Shown: positions 2,974 to 62,192, counted from the first letter of the whole stretch. The stretch: DNA of 62,576 bases, filler included, from Asterionella formosa (GCA_002256025.1; 25 parts of 25 records of this genome joined end to end with filler, not necessarily neighbours in it), one strand, 5' to 3'. Notes: generated by a model not told the origin, from the sequence alone. A program made the numbers and translations.

Positions 2974-4932
2974 GTTTTTTTTTTTTTTTTTTGGCTGTTC
3001 CAAGGCGCCAGGAGAAAACCTATCCGGCCGCTTTGCCCGCCTGCCCCATCGTTGTGGGGTGCTTGGGGGGCATCATGGGAGGATTCGAACTCCTCCCACC
3101 AGTTCACGTGTTCAGGAATGTGTTTGAGGCACCCCGTCATCCAATCATGTCCCAGTGTCCGGTGAGGCACCCCGCCCCTCTCACCTGGGCGAGGTAGTGT
3201 GAGACTTTCACTCACTAAAAACCTGTGTGCAGCCCCAGTCTTGACCAGTACGCGGTCTGCCCTACCCGTCGGGGCGTTGGCCCGTGGAGGTGTGTGGGAC
3301 CCCGTCAAATGCCTCACTTGCGTAAGACCCCCAACGGGACCTGATTATGTTAGCACGAAGGCTAACAACGCTCATCAGGAACCTGGCAAGGGTGGTGGCC
3401 CCTGCCGGGTTCCGTTCCATCTGGCTACCGTCCCCATCGGATGATGAGCTGTCAACCGAAGAGTCACAGTTTTGCTGTGCTGTGACTCCGGTTGGTTCAC
3501 CCATCATCCATCCATGTACCCAGCGGTTCTCACAACTCCCTCCGAGGAGCCATGCCAACCGTTGTTGGTCAAAACCGAGGGCGAAATTCGGCCCTAACGT
3601 CCGAACTTTCGCGATCAATTCTGCCATGTGTGGCTCGGTGCGTAGACCACGCCACCGACCACACGTGAACACTAAGTGTTCCAGCGTTTCTGGTTCCTCC
3701 ATACCACAAAATGGACACTTCCTCAAATACCTATGAGGCATTCGCTTCCACCCCACCAAGTTGGGGACAGTTACAAATGCCCCAATCCGACATCGAACTA
3801 TCAAAGCCAGTCCTGCTTGGTCGTTGGGACTGCCCCCCACACGTGACCGTGTGAGTGGATGCTTGTCAAATCCGGCTCCCTCATACCACACTGTGCGGGC
3901 CCCCGACGGACGAGTCAAGTTCCGTCGGATCCCACACTCTCTCTCCAAGATGCATGCTTTCACTACCTCAGCCAGTACCTTTGGTTCCAGGCTCTGCCAT
4001 CCAGCACCCAAGTACCTCTCCACAATAGATACCGGTGCATGGGGGAGCGCATAGCGTTTCAGCCAGCGCGGAACCCCTGAGCACCATGTCCATTTCTGAC
4101 TTCGGAATGGTCTTAGGACCAATTCCTGAAGCCAGGTTTTGAGACCCGAGGCCTTGGCATAAGCTCTGGCCCGTCGGGCACCCGCCAAGGCACACATTGG
4201 CAACATCCGTGCCTCCTTCCAAAGGCCTACTGATGGCACATCACCTGCCCTCCTGGCTCCAATGCTAGCCCTAAGGCATCGGTTCAGAAGAACCTGCATT
4301 TTGTCCGTAAGTTGACGGTTCATACCATACAGCTCAGCCCCAAAAAGGAGGCGGGGGGCAACTACTCCTGCAACAGTCAGCAAACGCATGGCCATTGGTA
4401 CCACCGGGCACCGTAGAAACGGTACCAAGGTGGCAACTGTGGCCCGCCCTTGCTTGACTCTATGGTCCACCATAGACGAGATAGACAGACCTGGTGTCAT
4501 GAGGACACCCAGATACATATATCTGTCCACAACAGGGAGTGGAAGTCCCTCCAGTTCCAGTCCAACCACATCTTGTCCAGGGACAAGCGGTTCGGTGGCC
4601 GAACCTGGGTCTGGCGGTAGGAATTCCATCAGCCCGCACTTCCCTATGCCCACACTCATCTCGTTAGCTGTAACCCAGTTGGTAACGTGCGTACAGAACC
4701 GTTTGGCCGCCTCCAGAGAGGGACAGATTCCGGCCGCATCATCAGCAAAGAGGGTACATCCTACTGTCAGTGTGGGTGTGGAGTTCCGCCATGTGCGACT
4801 GTCCCCAGTTGGTACCAGGGCACCGCTCTCCTCCGTCCCCACTGCCAAGTCATCAATGAAGATGTTGAACAGTATAGGCGAAAGAGGGCAACCCTGCCGC
4901 ACACCTCGCAACAGTCTGCAGGGGTCCGAGTA
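2974..4932 (-). mobile_element. Non-LTR retrotransposon (LINE), 3' part with GC-rich 3' UTR and poly(A) tail
   Basis: RT ORF ends at 3262, followed by an ~270-nt UTR and an A-tract (T-run at ~2974-2992 on +). A second near-identical copy lies at 31405-32552. Confidence 0.9.
3262..4932 (-). CDS. LINE reverse transcriptase (partial; 5' end off contig) with C-terminal zinc-finger (zf-RVT-like)
   Basis: RGVRQGCPLSPILFNIFIDDL, LFADDAAG, KCGLM, YMYLGV, CPFCGMEEPETLEHLVFTC. Confidence 0.95.
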   Translation of the reverse strand, partial: YSDPCRLLRGVRQGCPLSPILFNIFIDDLAVGTEESGALVPTGDSRTWRNSTPTLTVGCTLFADDAAGICPSLEAAKRFCTHVTNWVTANEMSVGIGKCGLMEFLPPDPGSATEPLVPGQDVVGLELEGLPLPVVDRYMYLGVLMTPGLSISSMVDHRVKQGRATVATLVPFLRCPVVPMAMRLLTVAGVVAPRLLFGAELYGMNRQLTDKMQVLLNRCLRASIGARRAGDVPSVGLWKEARMLPMCALAGARRARAYAKASGLKTWLQELVLRPFRSQKWTWCSGVPRWLKRYALPHAPVSIVERYLGAGWQSLEPKVLAEVVKACILERECGIRRNLTRPSGARTVWYEGAGFDKHPLTRSRVGGSPNDQAGLALIVRCRIGAFVTVPNLVGWKRMPHRYLRKCPFCGMEEPETLEHLVFTCGRWRGLRTEPHMAELIAKVRTLGPNFALGFDQQRLAWLLGGSCENRWVHGWMMGEPTGVTAQQNCDSSVDSSSSDGDGSQMERNPAGATTLARFLMSVVSLRANIIRSRWGSYASEAFDGVPHTSTGQRPDG

Positions 4933-19770: not shown

Positions 19771-20311
19771 CATCAGCTCAAGACTTCTGGGAGGGAACAT
19801 AACAGCTGTTTGTATTATGCAAATAATAGTGCAAGCATCTGCAGCATGGTGGACTTTGTAGAGTACGCTGGGTAACCACCCCAGCCAATTATTTTGCAGC
19901 AGATAATTCCAAGTGAGTAATCGCAATGTCATTAACTAAACAAAGTTTAACTATTTACTATAGCTCGCCGAGGTGGGTTTGTTTCTACATACACACTTAA
20001 AGAGTAATGCCNNNNNNNNNNNNNNNNNNNNNNNNNNNNNNNNNNNNNNNNNNNNTTAATTAATTAANNNNNNNNNNNNNNNNNNNNNNNNNNNNNNNNN
20101 NNNNNNNNNNNTGCATCGCGCGTCAACTGAGCCTTGATCTTGCCGGGAGGAAAAAGCTGAAACCAATCTACCACTGCCGAAGCTGCTGCCCGTTTATTCG
20201 CCATGTGGTATCAACGAACAAAACATGTGGGGTATGGGTGACAGAATGCCTGATACCAGCATCATACTAAATTGACTGTGGTGGTATCATGATGTAGACA
20301 GATAATGTGCG

Positions 20312-20356
20312 TACCTGGTACCTGGTACCTGGTACCAGTGCCAGGTACCAGGTACC
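20312..20356. repeat. (TACCTGG)n/(TACCAGG)n heptamer array
   Basis: tacctggtacctggtacctggtaccagtgccaggtaccaggtacc. Confidence 0.9.
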
Positions 20357-20779
20357 ACCGGTCGGTATTTGATTTGTCCACAAAACCCTACGTTTAGTAG
20401 TACAGAACCATTACTACCGGTATGAATACAATATACAGGTACCAACAAGTTGCGGTCATTTGCTTAAATAAACAATTCAATATGGGATAAAGAGCGCTAA
20501 ACTTACAGTTTCAGGACAATTACCGTAACGCACTTACACGTACTACTACCGGTACATACAATCCGGTCACATCAGAACGACCGAAGGGTCCTACCGGTAC
20601 TACAGTATCACATGAAGAATGTCGTGATGGACCTCGTCGTCACGAAGCACATTTCTGATCGCCTTGCTAGTAGGTAGGTATGTTAATCTCGTCGACTCTG
20701 CCATTGTTATACATTAACGTGACACCTATTCATGAAATCAAATTAGCTGTGCCACAATAAAGCAGTCCTCCACGTCAGT

Positions 20780-37566: not shown

Positions 37567-38399
37567 NNNNNNNNNNNNNNNNNNNNNNNNNNNNNNNNNN
37601 NNNNNNNNNNTTAATTAATTAANNNNNNNNNNNNNNNNNNNNNNNNNNNNNNNNNNNNNNNNNNNNTCAACAACATTGGATACCCGAAACTTACTTATTC
37701 AATAATTTACTGACAAGTTACTATTACAGACTTATGCATCAGTTGCATTGATTTGTGGTAAGTGAAGCAAGAGGATACGATGGAATTGCGTGTCGTTGTT
37801 TCAATGTAACATGACTACTTGCTAACAAATCATTCCTTCTCATTGTTTCTGTAACTGCATTGGTTGCTGCAATGTCAATTGAATCCTCGACTCAAATGAA
37901 AGAACTCTGCAATACAGTTGAATGGTGAGTGTGTTCTTGTTGTGTACCTAAATGCTAGTATGGCTTGTCAGCTCACGCATTGTTGTTGACAACAGGCAGG
38001 GACAATGAGGTCCGGAATGAACTGTGTGTTGCTTTCTGCTGTTGCTAGTTCTTTCATATACATTACTGACACACTGTTGTTATGAAAATCTCTGCAGGTC
38101 AATGAAGAAGCAAGTCATTTCAAGGACAAGAAGGAAGCCAGTGTGTGATGCATTCATGTTGCAACTTTGTGCAATAATGCCTCTTCAAGAATGAATGATT
38201 TCTTCATTCAGAATGCATGGCTTATGTTTGTCTTGCATTGTCCTTACAGACTTCTCATAATGCCTGCCTTCTCAAGACTGAAGATGCCATTCTGAAAGAA
38301 CTGCTTTGTTTGATTGCATATCGAGATTTGCTTCCCATGTAATGTGAAATACCGGTTGTTGAATTAGTAATCAACATTATTTGATAGTACTTTTAAAAT

Positions 38400-39075
38400 A
38401 CGTAAAAAAATTTAATAAATTACGTGAACCATATTATAGAATTACGTGAACAAAAATTTAAGGCAATGTGAACTGAATTACAGAATTAATTGAAGTATTT
38501 CAAATAATTATGTGAAGTATTTCATATAATTATGTGAAGGTGATCACGTAATATTGTGATGATCAGGAATGCATGCATGATACTCTGATCAAATAATTAA
38601 CGTGATGTATTCAGATAATATATAGATATATTCAAGTAAGCATTTTGATGTATTCAACTAATTCATGTGATCCATTCAAAATCAACTAGGCTTATTTACG
38701 TGATGGTCACTTCACGTAATACGCGGCTTAGATGGGTGATGATTGTTACCACTACTGATTTGTCAATAACTTCATCAATATTGGAGAAATCAATACCTAA
38801 GAACGACTCATCTCATTGGAAGATAGTACCGAATAAGATGGTATTCCGTTGATTCACAATGGATCAATGCTACTCATCATTTACATGTCACAGCCGGGAT
38901 TTTTTCACCTACACCCTACATGGTGATGATTATTACCACTACTGACTTGTCAATAACTTCATCAATATTGGAGCAATCCATAACACTATTCGAATTTGGT
39001 TATGATCAACCCAAACACAACCTCCAATTTACATGTCACAACCCGGATTTTTTAATCTATACCCTACATGGTGCT
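38400..39075. repeat. Degenerate ~22-bp array (attacgtga/attatgtga) followed by nested 50-bp direct repeats
   Basis: Periodic units 38400-38720 ending cacgtaatacgcggc|tta; repeats 38735/38925 and 38878/39028. Confidence 0.6.
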
Positions 39076-39224
39076 GATTGTTCCCAATTGTAACTTTGTG
39101 TATCATCTATCTCATTTCATATTTAAACATCTGCTAATGCTTTTGTGATTTGTTCCTATTATATATTGATCTATCTCAATTCATATTTTAGCATCTACTA
39201 ATCTTTTTGTTAATTGTCTATATC

Positions 39225-40072
39225 TTATATTGATCTATTGATTCGAAAGTGTTCACTTGGGGGTAACGTCTCAGGAGGTAATAATCTGCATTCACGATGG
39301 AACTGTGCGTCTAGAAAGAAGATCTGGACTAGATTCCGCTTTCTAGCAGCTGTTGTTATTGAATACCAATGTTCACTTGGGGGAGAGCTCTCCGTGTTGA
39401 TACAAAGGTTGTCCAAATACTTTGCTGCTTCGTTCTTTAACCACAGCTGCTGAGCCGTGAGAGTTTCTCCAGTTGCACCTAAGAAATTTGTCCTTCCTCG
39501 CAGATAGATAGGGCATTCTGAACATAAGCGTTGGGCATAACCAATGCGATATATTATCTTGTTTTTGACGTCATTCCATCGGTCAATCCAACCATCTGTT
39601 TTGGGCAACCGAATTGCTCGAGCCGAGGATGCCAAACTGTAGGAAACCAAACCTAATACTGTTGCAGTTGTCGGCTTAGACCTACCATGCAAGGATCGCA
39701 TATCCAAGTCAAGCTTGGGAAGAGCATTCCATACAGGCGCTTCTCTATGCCACCTACAGGAATGTGTCATCATCGCTTTGGCGACGCCGGCTTTGAAAGG
39801 AAGCTGTAGGTCTGCGGCAGCGGACAGAAAGTTTAACTGCACCTGACAAACAGGACACAGTGCAGGTTCAAACAACTGTTGTGTTGGTCCAACTGTGGCT
39901 TTTGATTCATGAGATAATACCGCTTCTGTTAATGTTTGAAGTTCATCCTGACACTGAGGCTGAAAGTTAGACATAGCACCCATTAACACACCCATCATCT
40001 GCGCCATATCAGATCGTATTGCTTTCAACTCTTCCCGCAGCACTGGAACACCCTCCTCCTCCTCCTCCTCCT
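39225..40072 (-). CDS. Hypothetical protein, 5'-partial (poly-Glu at contig end)
   Basis: Open frame of >280 codons with a CPVC motif; no family recognised. Confidence 0.55.
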
Positions 40073-40172: not shown

Positions 40173-41020
40173 AGGAGGAGGAGGAGGAGGAGGGTGTTCC
40201 AGTGCTGCGGGAAGAGTTGAAAGCAATACGATCTGATATGGCGCAGATGATGGGTGTGTTAATGGGTGCTATGTCTAACTTTCAGCCTCAGTGTCAGGAT
40301 GAACTTCAAACATTAACAGAAGCGGTATTATCTCATGAATCAAAAGCCACAGTTGGACCAACACAACAGTTGTTTGAACCTGCACTGTGTCCTGTTTGTC
40401 AGGTGCAGTTAAACTTTCTGTCCGCTGCCGCAGACCTACAGCTTCCTTTCAAAGCCGGCGTCGCCAAAGCGATGATGACACATTCCTGTAGGTGGCATAG
40501 AGAAGCGCCTGTATGGAATGCTCTTCCCAAGCTTGACTTGGATATGCGATCCTTGCATGGTAGGTCTAAGCCGACAACTGCAACAGTATTAGGTTTGGTT
40601 TCCTACAGTTTGGCATCCTCGGCTCGAGCAATTCGGTTGCCCAAAACAGATGGTTGGATTGACCGATGGAATGACGTCAAAAACAAGATAATATATCGCA
40701 TTGGTTATGCCCAACGCTTATGTTCAGAATGCCCTATCTATCTGCGAGGAAGGACAAATTTCTTAGGTGCAACTGGAGAAACTCTCACGGCTCAGCAGCT
40801 GTGGTTAAAGAACGAAGCAGCAAAGTATTTGGACAACCTTTGTATCAACACGGAGAGCTCTCCCCCAAGTGAACATTGGTATTCAATAACAACAGCTGCT
40901 AGAAAGCGGAATCTAGTCCAGATCTTCTTTCTAGACGCACAGTTCCATCGTGAATGCAGATTATTACCTCCTGAGACGTTACCCCCAAGTGAACACTTTC
41001 GAATCAATAGATCAATATAA
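40173..41020 (+). CDS. Same hypothetical protein, allelic or duplicate contig
   Basis: Contig 40173-42578 is the reverse complement of 37667-40072 apart from a few SNPs. Confidence 0.55.
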
Positions 41021-42678
41021 GATATAGACAATTAACAAAAAGATTAGTAGATGCTAAAATATGAATTGAGATAGATCAATATATAATAGGAACAAATCAC
41101 AAAAGCATTAGCAGATGTTTAAATATGAAATGAGATAGATGATACACAAAGTTACAATTGGGAACAATCAGCACCATGTAGGGTATAGATTAAAAAATCC
41201 GGGTTGTGACATGTAAATTGGAGGTTGTGTTTGGGTTGATCATAACCAAATTCGAATAGTGTTATGGATTGCTCCAATATTGATGAAGTTATTGACAAGT
41301 CAGTAGTGGTAATAATCATCACCATGTAGGGTGTAGGTGAAAAAATCCCGGCTGTGACATGTAAATGATGAGTAGCATTGATCCATTGTGAATCAACGGA
41401 ATACCATCTTATTCGGTACTATCTTCCAATGAGATGAGTCGTTCTTAGGTATTGATTTCTCCAATATTGATGAAGTTATTGACAAATCAGTAGTGGTAAC
41501 AATCATCACCCATCTAAGCCGCGTATTACGTGAAGTGACCATCACGTAAATAAGCCTAGTTGATTTTGAATGGATCACATGAATTAGTTGAATACATCAA
41601 AATGCTTACTTGAATATATCTATATATTATCTGAATACATCACGTTAATTATTTGATCAGAGTATCATGCATGCATTCCTGATCATCACTATATTACGTG
41701 ATCACCTTCACATAATTATATGAAATACTTCACATAATTATTTGAAATACTTCAATTAATTCTGTAATTCAGTTCACATTGCCTTAAATTTTTGTTCACG
41801 TAATTCTATAATATGGTTCACGTAATTTATTAAATTTTTTTACGTATTTTAAAAGTACTATCAAATAATGTTGATTACTAATTCAACAACCGGTATTTCA
41901 CATTACATGGGAAACAAATCTCGATATGCAATCAAACGAAGCAGTTCTTTCAGAATGGCATCTTCAGTCTTGAGAAGGCAGGCATTATGAGAAGTCTGTA
42001 AGGACAATGCAAGACAAACATAAGCCATGCATTCTGAATGAAAAAATCATTCATTCTTGAAGAGGCATTATTGCACGAAGTTGCAACATGAATGCATCAC
42101 ACACTGGCTTCCTTCTTGTCCTTGAAATGACTTGCTTCTTCATTGACCTGCAGAGATTTTCATAACAACAGTGTGTCAGTAATGTATATGATAGAACTAG
42201 CAACAGCAGAAAGCAACACACAGTTCATTCCGGACCTCATTGTCCCTGCCTGTTGTCAACAACAATGCGTGAGCTGACAAGCCATACTAGCATTTAGGTA
42301 CACAACAAGAACACACTCACCATTCAACTGTATTGCAGAGTTCTTTCATTTGAGTCGAGGATTCAATTGACATTGCAGCAACCAATGCAGTTACAGAAAC
42401 AATGAGAAGGAATGATTTGTTAGCAAGTAGTCATGTTACATTGAAACAACAACACGCAATTCCATCGTATCCTCTTGCTTCACTTACCACAAATCAATGC
42501 AACTGATGCATAAGTCTGTAATAGTAACTTGTCAGTAAATTATTGAATAAGTAAGTTTCGGGTATCCAATGTTGTTGANNNNNNNNNNNNNNNNNNNNNN
42601 NNNNNNNNNNNNNNNNNNNNNNTTAATTAATTAANNNNNNNNNNNNNNNNNNNNNNNNNNNNNNNNNNNNNNNNNNNN

Positions 42679-47587: not shown

Positions 47588-49503
47588 NNNNNNNNNNNNN
47601 NNNNNNNNNNNNNNNNNNNNNNNNNNNNNNNTTAATTAATTAANNNNNNNNNNNNNNNNNNNNNNNNNNNNNNNNNNNNNNNNNNNNATGTGAACGATTA
47701 CAAGATAGATCAAATAAGCTCACAATAAGGTGGGATTAGAACAGAAGGTTTTAATACACTGAGCTTGTCTAGAAAGAGTTAGCATTGCAGTCAGACTGCA
47801 GAAGAATTTAACACCTAGCTATCGTCTTGCTTTTCGATGAGAACTGTGGGTGTCTAAGTAATTTTTGGTTTCTTTAAGTAATGTTTTTATTTAGGGGTAA
47901 TATGGGGCACATTGGATTTTTCGGCAGTCAATTTTAGGTTTGAGCAGGAGGTAGTAAAGGGAAAATGGGCTGGCCATTGTTGTTAACCAGAAACCGTCTT
48001 TAACAGTGACGATATTCTCAGTGGCAATACTGGATAATAAAGGTTAAAATCTAAAACGTAAACTAAAATTATGATGTAAACTGTGAAAAATGGAAATGAT
48101 CTCCAATGGTCAATCCATTCCTCTCTTCCTGTAGGGTAATACTAATTCCATACGTAAATAGTGCATACGTAATCCCCAAATTGACGTGGTATGCAAACAT
48201 ACGTATTCCTTTTTCTCAAATTCTCAAGATCGGAACATATCCAGCTGTTCTGATCTTCCTCTATATATAGTAAACCCCTAATACTCCCCTTCATGCCATT
48301 ATAAGTGAGATCTTCAAGTGTGTGGGATGATCCTTTGTTTATTGATGGAGGACTTGATCTAGTCTTCTAAGGCGTTGTATCTGTGAGGCATCCAACAACC
48401 TTTTCAGGAATACTGACATCGCATCGTACTTAAGTAGCTAGGTTGTTGTATTTATCCCATGAAATGTTGGTAGTCAGTACATACTCGGGAGTACTTTGAT
48501 TGCTGATATATAATAGATTGTTTCCTCTGGTACATAAATTGCGGTGCTGAATATAATGTAAGCTGATCATGGTTGCCCCTTGAACGCATAGGGCTGCATA
48601 TGCCAGTACCGGTACATCATATCTATATACAACAATAGCTATACAGTACCGGTACTCTGGTACTCCCTCTGTCTAGTAACAGTTGCATCGATAATTCAAA
48701 TTTATCTGGGGCCATTTTGACTCCTACGATTTTCTCCGGCTCAATTGCCCTATTGTGCGGCTTGTTCTAAGCTACAGAATCATGCATACATTATATATAG
48801 AATGATTAAAATTGGCTACTACATTTGAAAAAAACGTTTTTGGGATTTTTCGATTTTCACTTGTAGCTAGTATCTCGAGCAAAATGCAGATGCATGAGGA
48901 CCCATTTTTCTTCGAACCATATATTCTCAACATACGTACAAAGTACGATATAACAGTAGAACAACTGCAACTTGCGTTCAATTATGGAATGTGCAACCCC
49001 GAAAGTGGCGATGATGGGAAGGAAGAAAACGACGGTATGCTCGTTTTGAGGATTGTAACCGTTAAACATCAGGTGGCATGGTCCATGTAGGTGCAACAAC
49101 CGTAGAAAGTATACCGAACAACAATTATTCTATTCAAGTTATAATTATGATAGTGGCTTGTTGTGTTTGGTTTCCCGCAAATAGTTGACTGGCCGGCCGA
49201 TGTGAAACAGCAGTTGGCGATATGTACATGTATGCAATGACATGCGTATGCTAAATCGGTTTCGATTAATTTATTTACATGCTAAAAATTTAATTACAGA
49301 AACCGAGTATATGTTCACGTCTATGTTACTCATAAAAAACGCATTTTTTCGAGTAAGCCGACCCTCACGTAGCAATTTGGTATGTTGGCTACATAATCCT
49401 TCATATGCGAACAGTTAAGACACTGGTGGTGCCGGCGAATCGATGCAACTGTTACTAGACAGAGGGAGTACCAGGTACCAGGGTACCATACCACACTGGC
49501 AAG

Positions 49504-55864: not shown

Positions 55865-56265
55865 ATAATTTCATTGAAATTTTGAAATTTGCAATGTCTT
55901 AAGTATTTACTTTGCTTGTTTAGTACCTCAATTGTTATTAACTATTTTATCTCCTAGTAGTTTCATGGTTTGCATGTTAACATGCATATTACTAGAAAAC
56001 TGGGGAGGTACAACAAGGGATTTCATTTCATGACAAAGCTATTAGAGGTGATGGTATTACCCAGTCTATACAAGGCAGTATATATACTGAGCTTTGTCGA
56101 AGGTGCTAGTTAACTACCACTGCACTACATAGCGACGACTTTATGTGCCAGGTACCTGGTACCAGGTACCCAGTCTAAACGAGTACCGGTACATTGCTAC
56201 ATAGCTTTTTTGTCGAAGGTGCCGGTGCACAACAAAGCTACGACTATATGTACTGGTACCTGGTA

Positions 56266-57689: not shown

Positions 57690-58686
57690 TCAAATTCATT
57701 TTAAGGAGCTGGCTTTTATCTGCATTGCAAGTCAATCCAAACCACTCACAATAATTGTTGATACTAAATAGCCATGAAGACCTGCTATTGAATTGGTCAT
57801 TATAACCTTGGTTGAACCCCTGGTTTCCAGAGGTTGCATAATAAAGGGTCACCAAGGCATAGATTTGGAGTAATTCAGTATCCATGATTTCTGCAGTACC
57901 TTGCTCACTTTCTAACCAGATCATTGCCTGCTGCTGTGGGGAGCCGTCAGTCAAAAGTGCAGCCCCATTATCAAACGAGTTCTCAGATAAAAAGAGGAAC
58001 AAAACAGAAGTTGGACTTGGTGATGGAGGAACTGATGTTGGATTCGATGTGAAAGGAGCCAATGTCTCATTGCCTGACTTGTTCCGAGTAAGCACAACTG
58101 CAACTACAGCAGCAACAATCGCAACAAGACTTGTGAGTCCACAAGATACCATGATGTTAATCATGCTACGGCGACGTTGGGCCTTCGCTTCAGCTTCAGC
58201 ATCGACAATTGCTACCCTTGCAGGAATATCAGGGGCAGATTCATCAACTAGAATGGCACTCACGGCCTCATGTTGGCCTCCCTCTATGCTATGCATGGCG
58301 AGTGGTTGCTGACTTATTCCCTGGGACTCCTCCAAAGACCATTCATCGTCGGCACTTGACCTTGCATGACCACTCCCTCCCACTGCGACTGCTCCAGGAA
58401 GTGTTTGTGGAGGTGCTCCTGGTTCTTCATGCTCCACCACCGCAGGAGAATCCTCCTGCAAAATGTTAGGCGCTGGTCCAGCCCTGTGGTTAACATATTC
58501 CTTTCCATTAATGTCTTCTCCATGTGAAGATTCAGAGTCCCGAGCTCGGTCTTCCTCCTTTGCTTCGTCAGCAAAAGGTACCCTGCTGGCATAATCGCTC
58601 TTCTGTTTTGCAGTGCCAGAAGGTTTCACTGACCTTACGTGATCATATTGGCTGCCTTTCTTGACTTCCTTGCTGTCTTCTTTCAT
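57690..58686 (-). CDS. Diatom-type LRR receptor-like membrane protein, 5' part
   Basis: PGAVAVGG motif, TM (LVAIVAAVVAVVL), Pro/Ser/Thr stalk, SPQQQAMIWL, YALVTLYYAT, CEWFGLTC (LRR N-cap). Confidence 0.85.
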
Positions 58687-58890: not shown

Positions 58891-58921
58891 GTTAGGGTTA
58901 GGGTTAGGGTTAGGGTTGGGG
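58891..58921 (+). repeat. Internal telomeric tract, (TTAGGG)4
   Basis: gttagggttagggttagggttagggttgggg. Confidence 0.95.
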
Positions 58922-60016
58922 TATGTGTGAGGGCTACAATGACTATTATCCAAGCGACGATGGGGTGACTACTTAAGTTGCCAAAAAGTAATGAGACTAA
59001 TGTTACTTTTCGCCTGAAGGGGCTTCATCAGTTGGCTTGAATCTGTAGTCTTGTTTTATTTAAGTCATGGTGTGTGCGGGGGGTTGGGCAGGCGTGGTTG
59101 GCTGTGAAATTACACCAGGAGTGGAGGCAGTATTTATAGTAGGAGGGGAAGGTAGCATGGACCTCGTAGAGGTTGATGTATCCCGTGTAGTATCAAGTTG
59201 TATCGTAAGTAAGTGAGTACTTACTGAAGTGGTGTCCGATCTCAATTTCCGTGGTGATGTATAATTCCCAATGTTTTTAGGGCGATTATAAGCGATTATC
59301 AACCGTTGGATGGTACATTGTTTTCCGGAGAAGTTCCGTAGGGTGGTAGGAATTGGTTCTTTACCCGGGGAGAGTATAGTGTCTCTGAAAATTTGTTGAA
59401 TGTGAGATGAGGGGGGATTATTCGGATGAAATGGCATGTGGAGGAACACGCATTGTTCTGTATGTGTGTCTGTTCTCTGAGTGGCCGTGTTGGTTTTGTT
59501 CGATTTGTTAACATATAGCTGTTTGATGTATGTGTTAAAAATGGGTAGAAGGGTTTTATCCGAATAACCTCGGAGTTGTAGGCGTTTGTAAAAAGAGTGG
59601 ATTGCAGTTTTGAAATGTGTGTCAATTGTTGTTAGATGGTAGATCCGGTGAATCATTCCAGCAATAAGACCGCGAAGGACACCAGGAGGGTGTGCACTAT
59701 GTTGTGGTATATAGAGATAGGGATTCAAGGATTTTTCAAAAAGTGTGGTATCAATAGAGCGGGTGTGTTTATTGATAGAGATTGTGAGATCCAGGAAAGT
59801 TGTAGATAACTGTCGTGGTTCTGCATTCCATTTAAGTATGCCAAAGGTATTCATCGAGTTGAGAAACGAGTTGTGTGTTTTGTTATCCTCGATATTGGAA
59901 GTTGATGTAGGGACCCAGATTATGAAGCAATCATCAATATACCTTCTGTAGAAGGATATTTGTGGAAACATTGGGATGGTTTGTATCTCGTGAATTGCAA
60001 AGTAGAGGGTGGCATA
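58922..60016 (-). mobile_element. Endonuclease-less Penelope-like retroelement, 5'-truncated, telomere-associated (RT ORF ends 59060)
   Basis: YATLYFAIHE, YRRYIDDCFIIW, FLDLTISI, YLYIPQHSAHP, LQLRGY, FHP, IIAYNRPKNI; no GIY-YIG motif before the stop. Confidence 0.92.
58967..59050 (-). ncRNA. Type I hammerhead ribozyme in the 3' end of the Penelope-like element
   Basis: gactac-agattcaa-gccaa CTGATGA a gcc-ccttca-ggc GAAA agtaa-cattagtctca-ttact TT|ttggc-aacttaa-gtagtc: core boxes plus stems I (with internal loop), II and III all pair. Confidence 0.85.
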
Positions 60017-60083
60017 TAGGGTTAGGGTTAGGGTTAGGGTTAGGGTTAGGGTTAGGGTTAGGGTTAGGGTTAGGGTTAGGGTT
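60017..60083 (+). repeat. Telomere (TTAGGG)n, chromosome end
   Basis: About 11 perfect repeats running to the contig end, G-rich strand 5'->3' outward. Confidence 0.95.
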
Positions 60084-60249
60084 NNNNNNNNNNNNNNNNN
60101 NNNNNNNNNNNNNNNNNNNNNNNNNNNTTAATTAATTAANNNNNNNNNNNNNNNNNNNNNNNNNNNNNNNNNNNNNNNNNNNNATATCATCAATCATCAT
60201 TCATGAAGCTCAATCGGAATCCACTGGTTGTAGAGTGAAATTTGTGCAC

Positions 60250-61744: not shown

Positions 61745-62192
61745 ATCATACAGGTACCAGGGAGCGGTATATGTCAGCGACAGTTGGCTGGATTGATATC
61801 ATTCCTTCGAGCTCTCTATATATTTTGTATTTTACCGGTATGAACATATCCTTTGATTAATCATTCCACGAGCTCTATGTATTGTTTATGCAAGTTCGAT
61901 GCAAGGTACCAGGTACCAGGTACCCTGGTACCTGATACCAGGCTCCACTACAAGGTACTACCGGTTAAGCAATTTTCAATGCTTACCGGTACCGGTAGGT
62001 GATCTTGCGTACTGTAGACAAAAATACCTCGTAATGGTACTTCCTGCACCGGTATTGGTACAATTAGTGCCAGGTACTCTACCCCTGGTACCAGGCACCA
62101 GGTAAAAACCCACCATGGTGCCGGTAGCAGGATTACCTCGTACCAGGTACCGGTATCAACCTGAATACAAAGTCAGGTACGAGGTACCAGGG
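61745..62192. repeat. Dense TA-CC(W)GG-TA motif cluster
   Basis: For example ta-ccagg-ta-ccagg-ta-ccctgg-ta at 61907-61930 and ta-ccgg-ta-ccgg-ta at 61984-61997. Confidence 0.85.

Follow-up and report, generated by a model that had tools for sequence, protein, structure and literature searches.

On one contig of the DNA stretch analysed here, a Penelope-like element (PLE) that probably belongs to the endonuclease-less (EN(-)), two-ORF type of Coprina and Athena is preserved as a dead copy lacking its 5' part, probably at or next to a chromosome end. From its layout we propose that reverse transcription was primed at the end of a short telomere and that truncation and capping by telomerase came later. 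This interpretation builds on the anatomy and polarity of the copy, the absence of an endonuclease, several PLE hallmarks (in relatives the DKN motif and a fold like that of TERT, in the copy itself a putative hammerhead-like motif) and a longer, near-identical copy.

The window, i.e. the whole stretch of 62,576 bases, consists of 25 contigs of about 2.4-2.5 kb each which were joined end to end, and it represents more than one locus. Its 48 runs of N, each 44 bases long, enclose TTAATTAATTAA in pairs and form 24 artificial spacers (N44-TTAATTAATTAA-N44). The telomere-element-telomere structure is located on the contig from 57690 to 60083 (2394 nt). Positions 60084-60183 are one of these spacers; thus, position 60083 is a contig end. 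On the plus strand this contig comprises the start of a gene, the inner repeats, the 1094-nt element in antisense orientation and the outer repeats, which extend to its last base. The following features were assigned:

57691..58686, minus strand: host gene next to the inner repeats, 5' part of 332 codons (start codon 58686-58684, running out of the contig at its start at 57690; from the ORF list)
58892..58922, plus strand: inner telomere repeats, consisting of (TTAGGG)4, one TTGGGG unit and a final T; the G-strand points to the contig end
58923..59059, minus strand: 3' UTR of the element (137 nt)
58980..59036, minus strand: hammerhead-ribozyme-like motif in the 3' UTR, predicted by our own descriptor scan
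59060..59062, minus strand: stop codon that closes the RT ORF, in a position shared with the ends of its relatives
59063..60016, minus strand: 5'-truncated RT ORF (318 codons), from the end of motif B (YATLY) to the C-terminal region
60017..60083, plus strand: outer telomeric array of 11.2 perfect TTAGGG units, which closes the contig

The other 24 contigs of the window contained neither a second copy of the element nor a further telomere array. Tandem repeats of other kinds were observed on them. Tandem Repeats Finder (TRF) reported 22-nt and 64-nt tandem repeats that form mirror-image sets on two neighbouring contigs (38394-38680 / 41565-41851 and 39105-39238 / 41007-41140), the consensus units of which resemble reverse complements of each other. 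A single repeat region, or an inverted one, may have entered the assembly twice here. Short tandem repeats with a 7-nt unit of the GGTACCA type were found in several unrelated contigs (61904-61942, 20311-20357, 49468-49488 and 56148-56170) and may be a genome-wide microsatellite of the source organism.

The telomere repeats were characterized using TRF. The inner tract (58891-58922) was reported with a period of 6, 5.3 copies and 96% matches, the outer array (60017-60083) with a period of 6, 11.2 copies and 100% matches. The 12-mer TTAGGGTTAGGG matched the window 15 times with at most one mismatch, compared to 0.11 matches expected from shuffles. Fourteen of these 15 matches are located within the two telomere tracts, all on the plus strand. 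Thus, the G-strand runs 5' to 3' toward the contig end in both tracts, as it does at a real chromosome end. Unique DNA extends up to 58891 and switches abruptly to repeats at 58891/58892, without degenerate subtelomeric repeats. On the opposite side of the inner tract, the last bases of the element's 3' UTR (...CCCTCACACATA in the sense orientation) lead into C-strand repeats. At the outer junction, homology of the RT to its relatives begins at residue 2 of the frame (Y, 60016). Consequently, the element ends at 60016 and the codon 60017-60019 (CTA) is telomere-derived.

The element is antisense to the G-strand, with its 3' end on the inner repeats and its truncated 5' end on the outer array, which is the polarity expected for end-priming. 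At the contig level the copy has a telomeric location, its 3' end facing inward, its ORF pointing centromere-ward and repeats capping it. The first-pass annotation had described four TTAGGG units, a minus-strand RT fragment and terminal (TTAGGG)n, and both direct reading and TRF bore this out. The element, given there as 1.1 kb, measures 1094 nt (58923-60016). Its 3' end had been placed on the inner repeats and its 5' end outward, and this layout and polarity are the same as in published Coprina/Athena-type elements. The annotation had called the structure a chromosome end; position 60083 itself is a contig end within telomere repeat. For a check of the junctions, the Logan contigs of four runs were mapped to the stretch with both repeat tracts masked, so that coverage refers to non-repeat sequence.

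About 205 nt separate the start codon of the flanking gene from the inner telomere repeats. In a search for longer proteins its single match, at 26% identity (E 6.6e-8), was an LRR receptor-like kinase from the diatom Seminavis robusta. The gene region drew many variant contigs in all four mapped runs. Apparently, this LRR-receptor-like gene belongs to a multi-copy family.

The minus-strand frame is open from the outer array to the stop codon at 59060-59062 and comprises 319 residues. YIDD occupies residues 27-30, 25 codons past the first codon of the element. The first-pass annotation of an intact frame which is cut just upstream of YIDD therefore holds for the open frame at 59063-60019. What is retained extends from the end of motif B (YATLY) over YIDD and the subsequent RT motifs into the thumb and the C-terminal region; motifs 1, 2 and A, most of motif B and the entire N-terminal DKN region are absent. 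Consequently, the fragment is unable to make an active RT.

Database searches with the window frame revealed 208 longer relatives at E<=1e-3; the 120 longer matches listed have 563-1066 aa and are 35-47% identical to the frame. In addition, 159 proteins of similar length were found at E<=1e-20 and 3823 representative clusters at E<=1e-3, 193 of them at E<=1e-30. An alignment of 29 sequences (A1; the window frame and 28 relatives) showed at least 90% conservation of DKNLGP, a motif of the DKN type that is described as typical of PLEs in a passage of PMC13159263. RPIVS, DAxSMYTNI, GTAMGTPPAP, RYIDD, FLD and the LYIPPHSAHPPG thumb region were also conserved. The window frame matches this alignment through RYIDD, FLD, the LYIPPHSAHPPG region and a C-terminal AYxRPxNLGN motif, and the 28 aligned relatives end where the window ORF ends or within a few dozen residues of this position. 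Judged by these motifs, the family possesses an RT of the PLE/TERT type, with the DKN motif, the RT motifs and the thumb present in the relatives; the window copy keeps the part from YIDD onward.

An endonuclease was searched for at several levels. The GIY-YIG domain (PF01541) was present in none of the 240 matches listed (120 + 120) according to their precomputed Pfam domains, in which the accessions PF28514 and PF26215 were encountered. A Pfam scan of six RT proteins and six ORF1 proteins gave no GIY-YIG match at either end of the RT or in ORF1, and the same copy of Pfam also missed the RT, which indicates low sensitivity. This copy likewise returned no family for the 319-residue frame of the window. 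The ORF ends together with its relatives and is followed by 137 nt after the stop; thus, the element contains no C-terminal endonuclease. Together with the 240 matches listed without GIY-YIG, this is in agreement with the first-pass annotation of a Penelope-type RT that lacks this domain.

An AlphaFold2 model of the relative P0001, which was built on alignment A1, reached a pLDDT of 89.8 and a pTM of 0.85. Its six best Foldseek matches in the PDB were all telomerase RTs (E 1.4e-8 to 1.2e-7, TMq 0.35-0.43), followed by Prp8, LINE-1 ORF2p and group II intron RTs. This order fits the sister relationship of PLE RTs and TERTs given in the relevant passages of PMC8557442. When the PDB was searched with a sequence profile, no relevant match was obtained.

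The protein closest to the window frame among those compared was P0263 (428 aa, cluster of 17 sequences), which is encoded on a 3685-nt contig. It is identical to the frame in 314 of 318 residues (99%) and extends 109 residues further upstream, through motif A (FTMDAISMYTNI) and motif B (GTAMGTPPAP). Consequently, the window copy is a recent 5'-truncated derivative, which matches the earlier suggestion that the event or the family is recent. More distant copies with 63-84% identity (P0121, P0183, P0175, P0238 and P0264) exhibited frameshifts or decay; P0238 reads through the same 3' UTR (SPFRRKV.LVSLLFGNLSSH in the read-through frame). Among the matches listed, the named RT relatives belong to the diatoms Aulacoseira, Cyclotella meneghiniana and Chaetoceros tenuissimus, with 32-42% identity. 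Together with the Seminavis robusta match of the flanking gene, they make a host of the diatom type likely. Parts of the stretch were found in 20 run rows from 13 studies, mostly of lake and freshwater samples, 8 of them on record as RNA. In one RNA library a single contig of 1195 nt spans 58932-60010 with 6 differences and carries 108 further letters past 60010; occurrence in an RNA library is not proof of transcription.

The 3' UTR of the element was folded as RNA (-30.3 kcal/mol, z -3.03), and this fold exposed a core of the form CUGAUGA...GAAA, which the first-pass annotation does not mention. The putative hammerhead consists of helix I (GCCAA/UUGGC), the core CUGAUGA with one extra A, helix II (GCC/GGC) followed by GAAA, and helix III (AGUAA/UUACU) followed by U and U. 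Cleavage is predicted between 58985 and 58984. The three-helix descriptor used for searching required a helix I with 4 or more bp, then CUGANGA with up to one additional nucleotide, a hairpin as helix II, GAAA, a hairpin as helix III, U, H and finally the return strand of helix I. A stricter first descriptor had missed the motif of the window, which was found when one nucleotide was allowed after CUGANGA. The descriptor matched the 62.6-kb window once on both strands together (58980-59036, in the sense of the element) and gave 0 matches in 1000 shuffles of the contig.

Among 76 related loci the descriptor gave 12 matches, all on the sense strand, versus a total of 2 over 20 shuffles of these loci. 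Six of the matches (L043, L044, L050, L052, L053 and L075) have the canonical core CUGAUGAG...CGAAAC, and their helix III contains two compensatory pairs. The variant with the extra A, as in the window, occurs in L019, L049, L066 (twice), L067 and L072, where helices I and II differ in sequence and yet pair. Covariation among these matches is partly circular since the descriptor itself requires pairing. When five variant motifs were aligned by MAFFT and analyzed by RNAalifold, helix II was misaligned and helix III alone was recovered. Rfam reported no hammerhead in the contig of the window, none in 20 loci at the gathering threshold and none in 10 loci at E<=5. Sub-threshold matches to Rfam Hammerhead_3 alone were obtained, for L052 and L043 (E 0.25 and 0.58).

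In full units the motif is located between the RT ORF and ORF1, for example directly upstream of ORF1 in L049, L066 and L044. In the window copy it lies 23 nt past the stop and 57 nt ahead of the C-strand repeats. Self-cleavage at this position, upstream of the repeats, would detach the repeat tail from the coding RNA. The window copy was therefore probably templated by an uncleaved or read-through RNA. The simple picture of a ribozyme that exposes the tail does not fit this copy.

The architecture of complete elements was deduced from at least 581 confirmed metagenome stretches, from which the 76 loci were kept. Related units of about 3.5-4.6 kb contain ORF1 (roughly 400-540 codons) followed by the RT ORF; none of the six ORF1s scanned matched a Pfam family. 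Eight loci (L003, L014, L023, L032, L033, L034, L048 and L049) show end overlaps of 111-127 nt. Their contigs of 3.4-4.3 kb repeat their first bases at the end, differ in the offset of the RT ORF and close into circles on assembly, in line with tandem arrays of the unit or with circular DNA or RNA forms of it. In L006 and L007 internal landmarks are repeated about 3.7 kb apart, as in tandem units, and L066 carries two identical hammerhead-like motifs at a distance of 4595 nt. Thus, the relatives exhibit the tandem or pseudo-LTR pattern of PLEs.

The best comparandum for the window copy is L031, which has the same polarity and contains ORF1 and the RT ORF. A sequence of 51 nt at the start of its contig is repeated at 4183-4233; the 5' copy runs on into ORF1 and the 3' copy directly into 12 CCCTAA units at the contig end. 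The terminal repeat itself ends in the telomere-like CCCTCAACCTA. Telomere-type repeats were found in three of the 76 loci, namely in L031 and as a 12-nt CCCCAA pair in L047 and L048, and G-strand telomere repeats in none of the 76. Since the other 73 lack any telomere repeat, the wider family is not visibly confined to telomeres in these contigs. NPNP(NP) tails were observed in seven of 261 fetched proteins (P0010, P0036, P0072, P0123, P0126, P0148 and P0163), 10-45 residues from the C-terminus and after the last conserved RT motif. NPNP(NP) corresponds to translated (AACCCT)n C-strand repeats. Apparently, short telomere-complement tracts are part of the element in some relatives.

In 27 of 63 evaluable loci a simple repeat of at least 20 nt starts at most 150 nt (mostly 18-46) after the end of the RT homology, a position which we call the repeat slot. 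These repeats are CAA/ACA/AAC (16 loci), GT/TG (4), TTG (2), AG/GA (2), TA (2) and ATC (1). The loci include L006, L007, L011, L015, L016, L018, L021-L026, L030, L035, L036, L039, L042, L045, L051, L058, L062, L065, L069 and L070, and many contigs of the relatives break inside the slot repeats. The repeat slot may be a swappable priming tail; the slot repeats could just as well be low-complexity tails of the coding sequence, remnants of the target or positions where the assembly breaks. We tentatively consider, as a possible but rather doubtful view, a clade of two-ORF EN-less PLEs of aquatic protists that is very large and for the most part unnamed, with the window copy as its telomeric representative. 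This clade would be marked by an extra-A hammerhead and by a repeat slot that varies by lineage, i.e. C-strand telomere, (CAA)n, (TG)n, (TTG)n or (AG)n.

Among mobile elements, the EN(-) PLEs are most closely related to telomerase. Their attachment to telomeres, as a class, is said to have been described since 2007, by Gladyshev and Arkhipova. According to passages of PMC8557442, Athena and Coprina attach to exposed G-rich overhangs, aided by reverse-complement telomeric repeats and adjacent hammerhead motifs. Thirteen copies of Coprina-1_Alen of Ascochyta lentis are described in parts of PMC13159263, all of them at chromosome ends, with two ORFs that point centromere-ward and with telomere repeats on both sides in all copies except one degraded copy. 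Coprina elements occur in fungi, in a clubmoss and, as the same paper states, in the diatom Phaeodactylum tricornutum. The class of the element is already described, including from a diatom; the first-pass annotation had called the class known and the family possibly undescribed.

The window copy and its relatives resemble Coprina in the lack of GIY-YIG, in the DKN motif, the RT motifs and the thumb, and perhaps in the hammerhead-like motif. The window copy also shares the location at an end, the telomere repeats on both sides and the inward direction of the ORF. Coprina-1_Alen has two ORFs like the full-length relatives and flanking direct repeats like L031. This likeness concerns layout, polarity and motifs; the best relatives are metagenome proteins (36-47% identity), and the named diatom proteins have 32-42%. 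Differences are the extra A after CUGAUGA in the hammerhead-like core of the window copy and the fact that most relatives show microsatellites, not telomere repeats, after the RT. The Athena elements, or Terminons, of bdelloid rotifers are EN(-) PLEs with an upstream ORF1 which likewise attach to G-rich overhangs and are described as rotifer-specific in the relevant passages of PMC8557442. In contrast, the host of the window copy looks like a diatom-type alga, its telomere repeat is TTAGGG, and no giant multi-gene structure was seen.

The EN(+) PLEs (Penelope/Poseidon, Neptune, Nematis) and those with an N-terminal endonuclease (Naiad, Chlamys) are similar in the RT core, the DKN-type motif, the tandem or pseudo-LTR arrangement and perhaps the hammerhead motifs. 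The simple repeats beside the elements of the relatives recall the microsatellite insertion bias of Chlamys and Naiad which is mentioned in parts of PMC8557442. These groups differ by their endonuclease, since GIY-YIG was found neither in the six RT proteins and six ORF1s nor among the 240 matches listed. TERT provides the closest solved fold to the P0001 model (six top Foldseek matches, TM-scores about 0.35-0.43). As proposed for the element, it extends the G-strand from a chromosomal 3'-OH on an RNA template with C-strand complementarity. The element differs in that it copies its own RNA of several kb, is mobile and multi-copy and lacks the N-terminal domains of TERT. In summary, the element probably works like Coprina and Athena and agrees with them in every PLE and EN(-) feature examined, save for the hammerhead call, which is that of our own descriptor.

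By analogy with the published model, such an element would reach its position as follows. The 3' end of its RNA, carrying or running into (CCCUAA)n, would anneal to the G-strand of a chromosome end that was short or had lost its cap; four repeats are left of this end. The chromosomal 3'-OH would then prime reverse transcription by the telomerase-related RT of the element. Because the cDNA extends the G-strand, the element would come to lie antisense to it, with the ORF pointing inward. Synthesis may have stopped early, or the end may later have eroded into RT motif B. Telomerase would finally have added new TTAGGG repeats directly onto ...GGCATA.

The 2394-nt contig stops inside the repeat, and the sequence beyond 60083 is not visible. 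The same mechanism may thus be combined with a different outer array, one that is a spacer in a longer subtelomeric stack (repeat-element-repeat-element and so on) where the contig was broken by an assembler stopping in repeats. The 99%-identical longer copy P0263 on another contig and the 108 letters past 60010 in the 1195-nt contig of the RNA library would both fit a stack. So would the tandem PLE at one A. lentis chromosome end that needed collapsing in the assembly, as a passage of PMC13159263 mentions. The 67 nt of the outer array are, however, all perfect repeats, and the element is not continued anywhere in the window; we regard a stack as unlikely. Quite improbable, in our estimate, is an origin of the four inner repeats from the tail of the element RNA. 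Never having been a telomere, they would have been carried to a broken, non-telomeric end located about 200 nt upstream of the gene, i.e. by chromosome healing through retrotransposition. The abrupt switch from unique DNA to repeats at 58891/58892 without degenerate subtelomeric repeats, with the gene start about 205 nt away, would be in line with healing. Short C-strand repeats belong to the element in relatives, as in the NPNP(NP) tails of 7 of 261 proteins and the terminal CCCTCAACCTA of L031. Under the published model, however, priming without complementarity of the tail is less likely, and one copy cannot separate healing from priming on a telomere.

Two further explanations were considered. 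An assembly chimera would have joined fragments of a subtelomeric gene and of an element from different loci via a shared 31-nt telomere tract. The assembly is fragmented and the contig 2.4 kb long, the gene region is multi-copy, with many variant contigs in the mapped runs, and the masking of the repeats in the contig mapping leaves no bridging contig readable. The variant unit TTGGGG beside the element, however, makes the tract partly unique, and the retained 67-nt terminal array suggests an assembly word length above the 31-nt inner tract, so that reads would span it. We regard a chimera as very improbable. Hardly conceivable is an internal locus far from chromosome ends, with the element fragment between two interstitial telomere-like tracts. 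It is compatible with a contig of 2.4 kb, and direct evidence for it was not found. Arguments against such a locus are the shared orientation of the two tracts (G-strand outward), the 11 perfect units of the outer one and the polarity of the element, which is that expected for end-priming. End-primed retrotransposition onto a short telomere thus remains our preferred explanation.

Each well-resolved telomere-element-telomere junction illustrates the extension of a chromosome end by a retroelement. The copy in the window adds a probable diatom-type freshwater host and leaves the picture given by the literature of 2007-2026 unchanged. Its near-identical longer sibling points to recent activity, and the hammerhead-like motif upstream of the repeat tail constrains how the RNA of the element can be processed. 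The question that remains is the role of the many non-telomeric, microsatellite-bearing relatives in aquatic metagenomes. Should the repeat slot act as an RNA tail by which the priming site is selected, the target in this clade would be specified by an exchangeable tail resembling a template, and telomere specificity would be restricted to some lineages.
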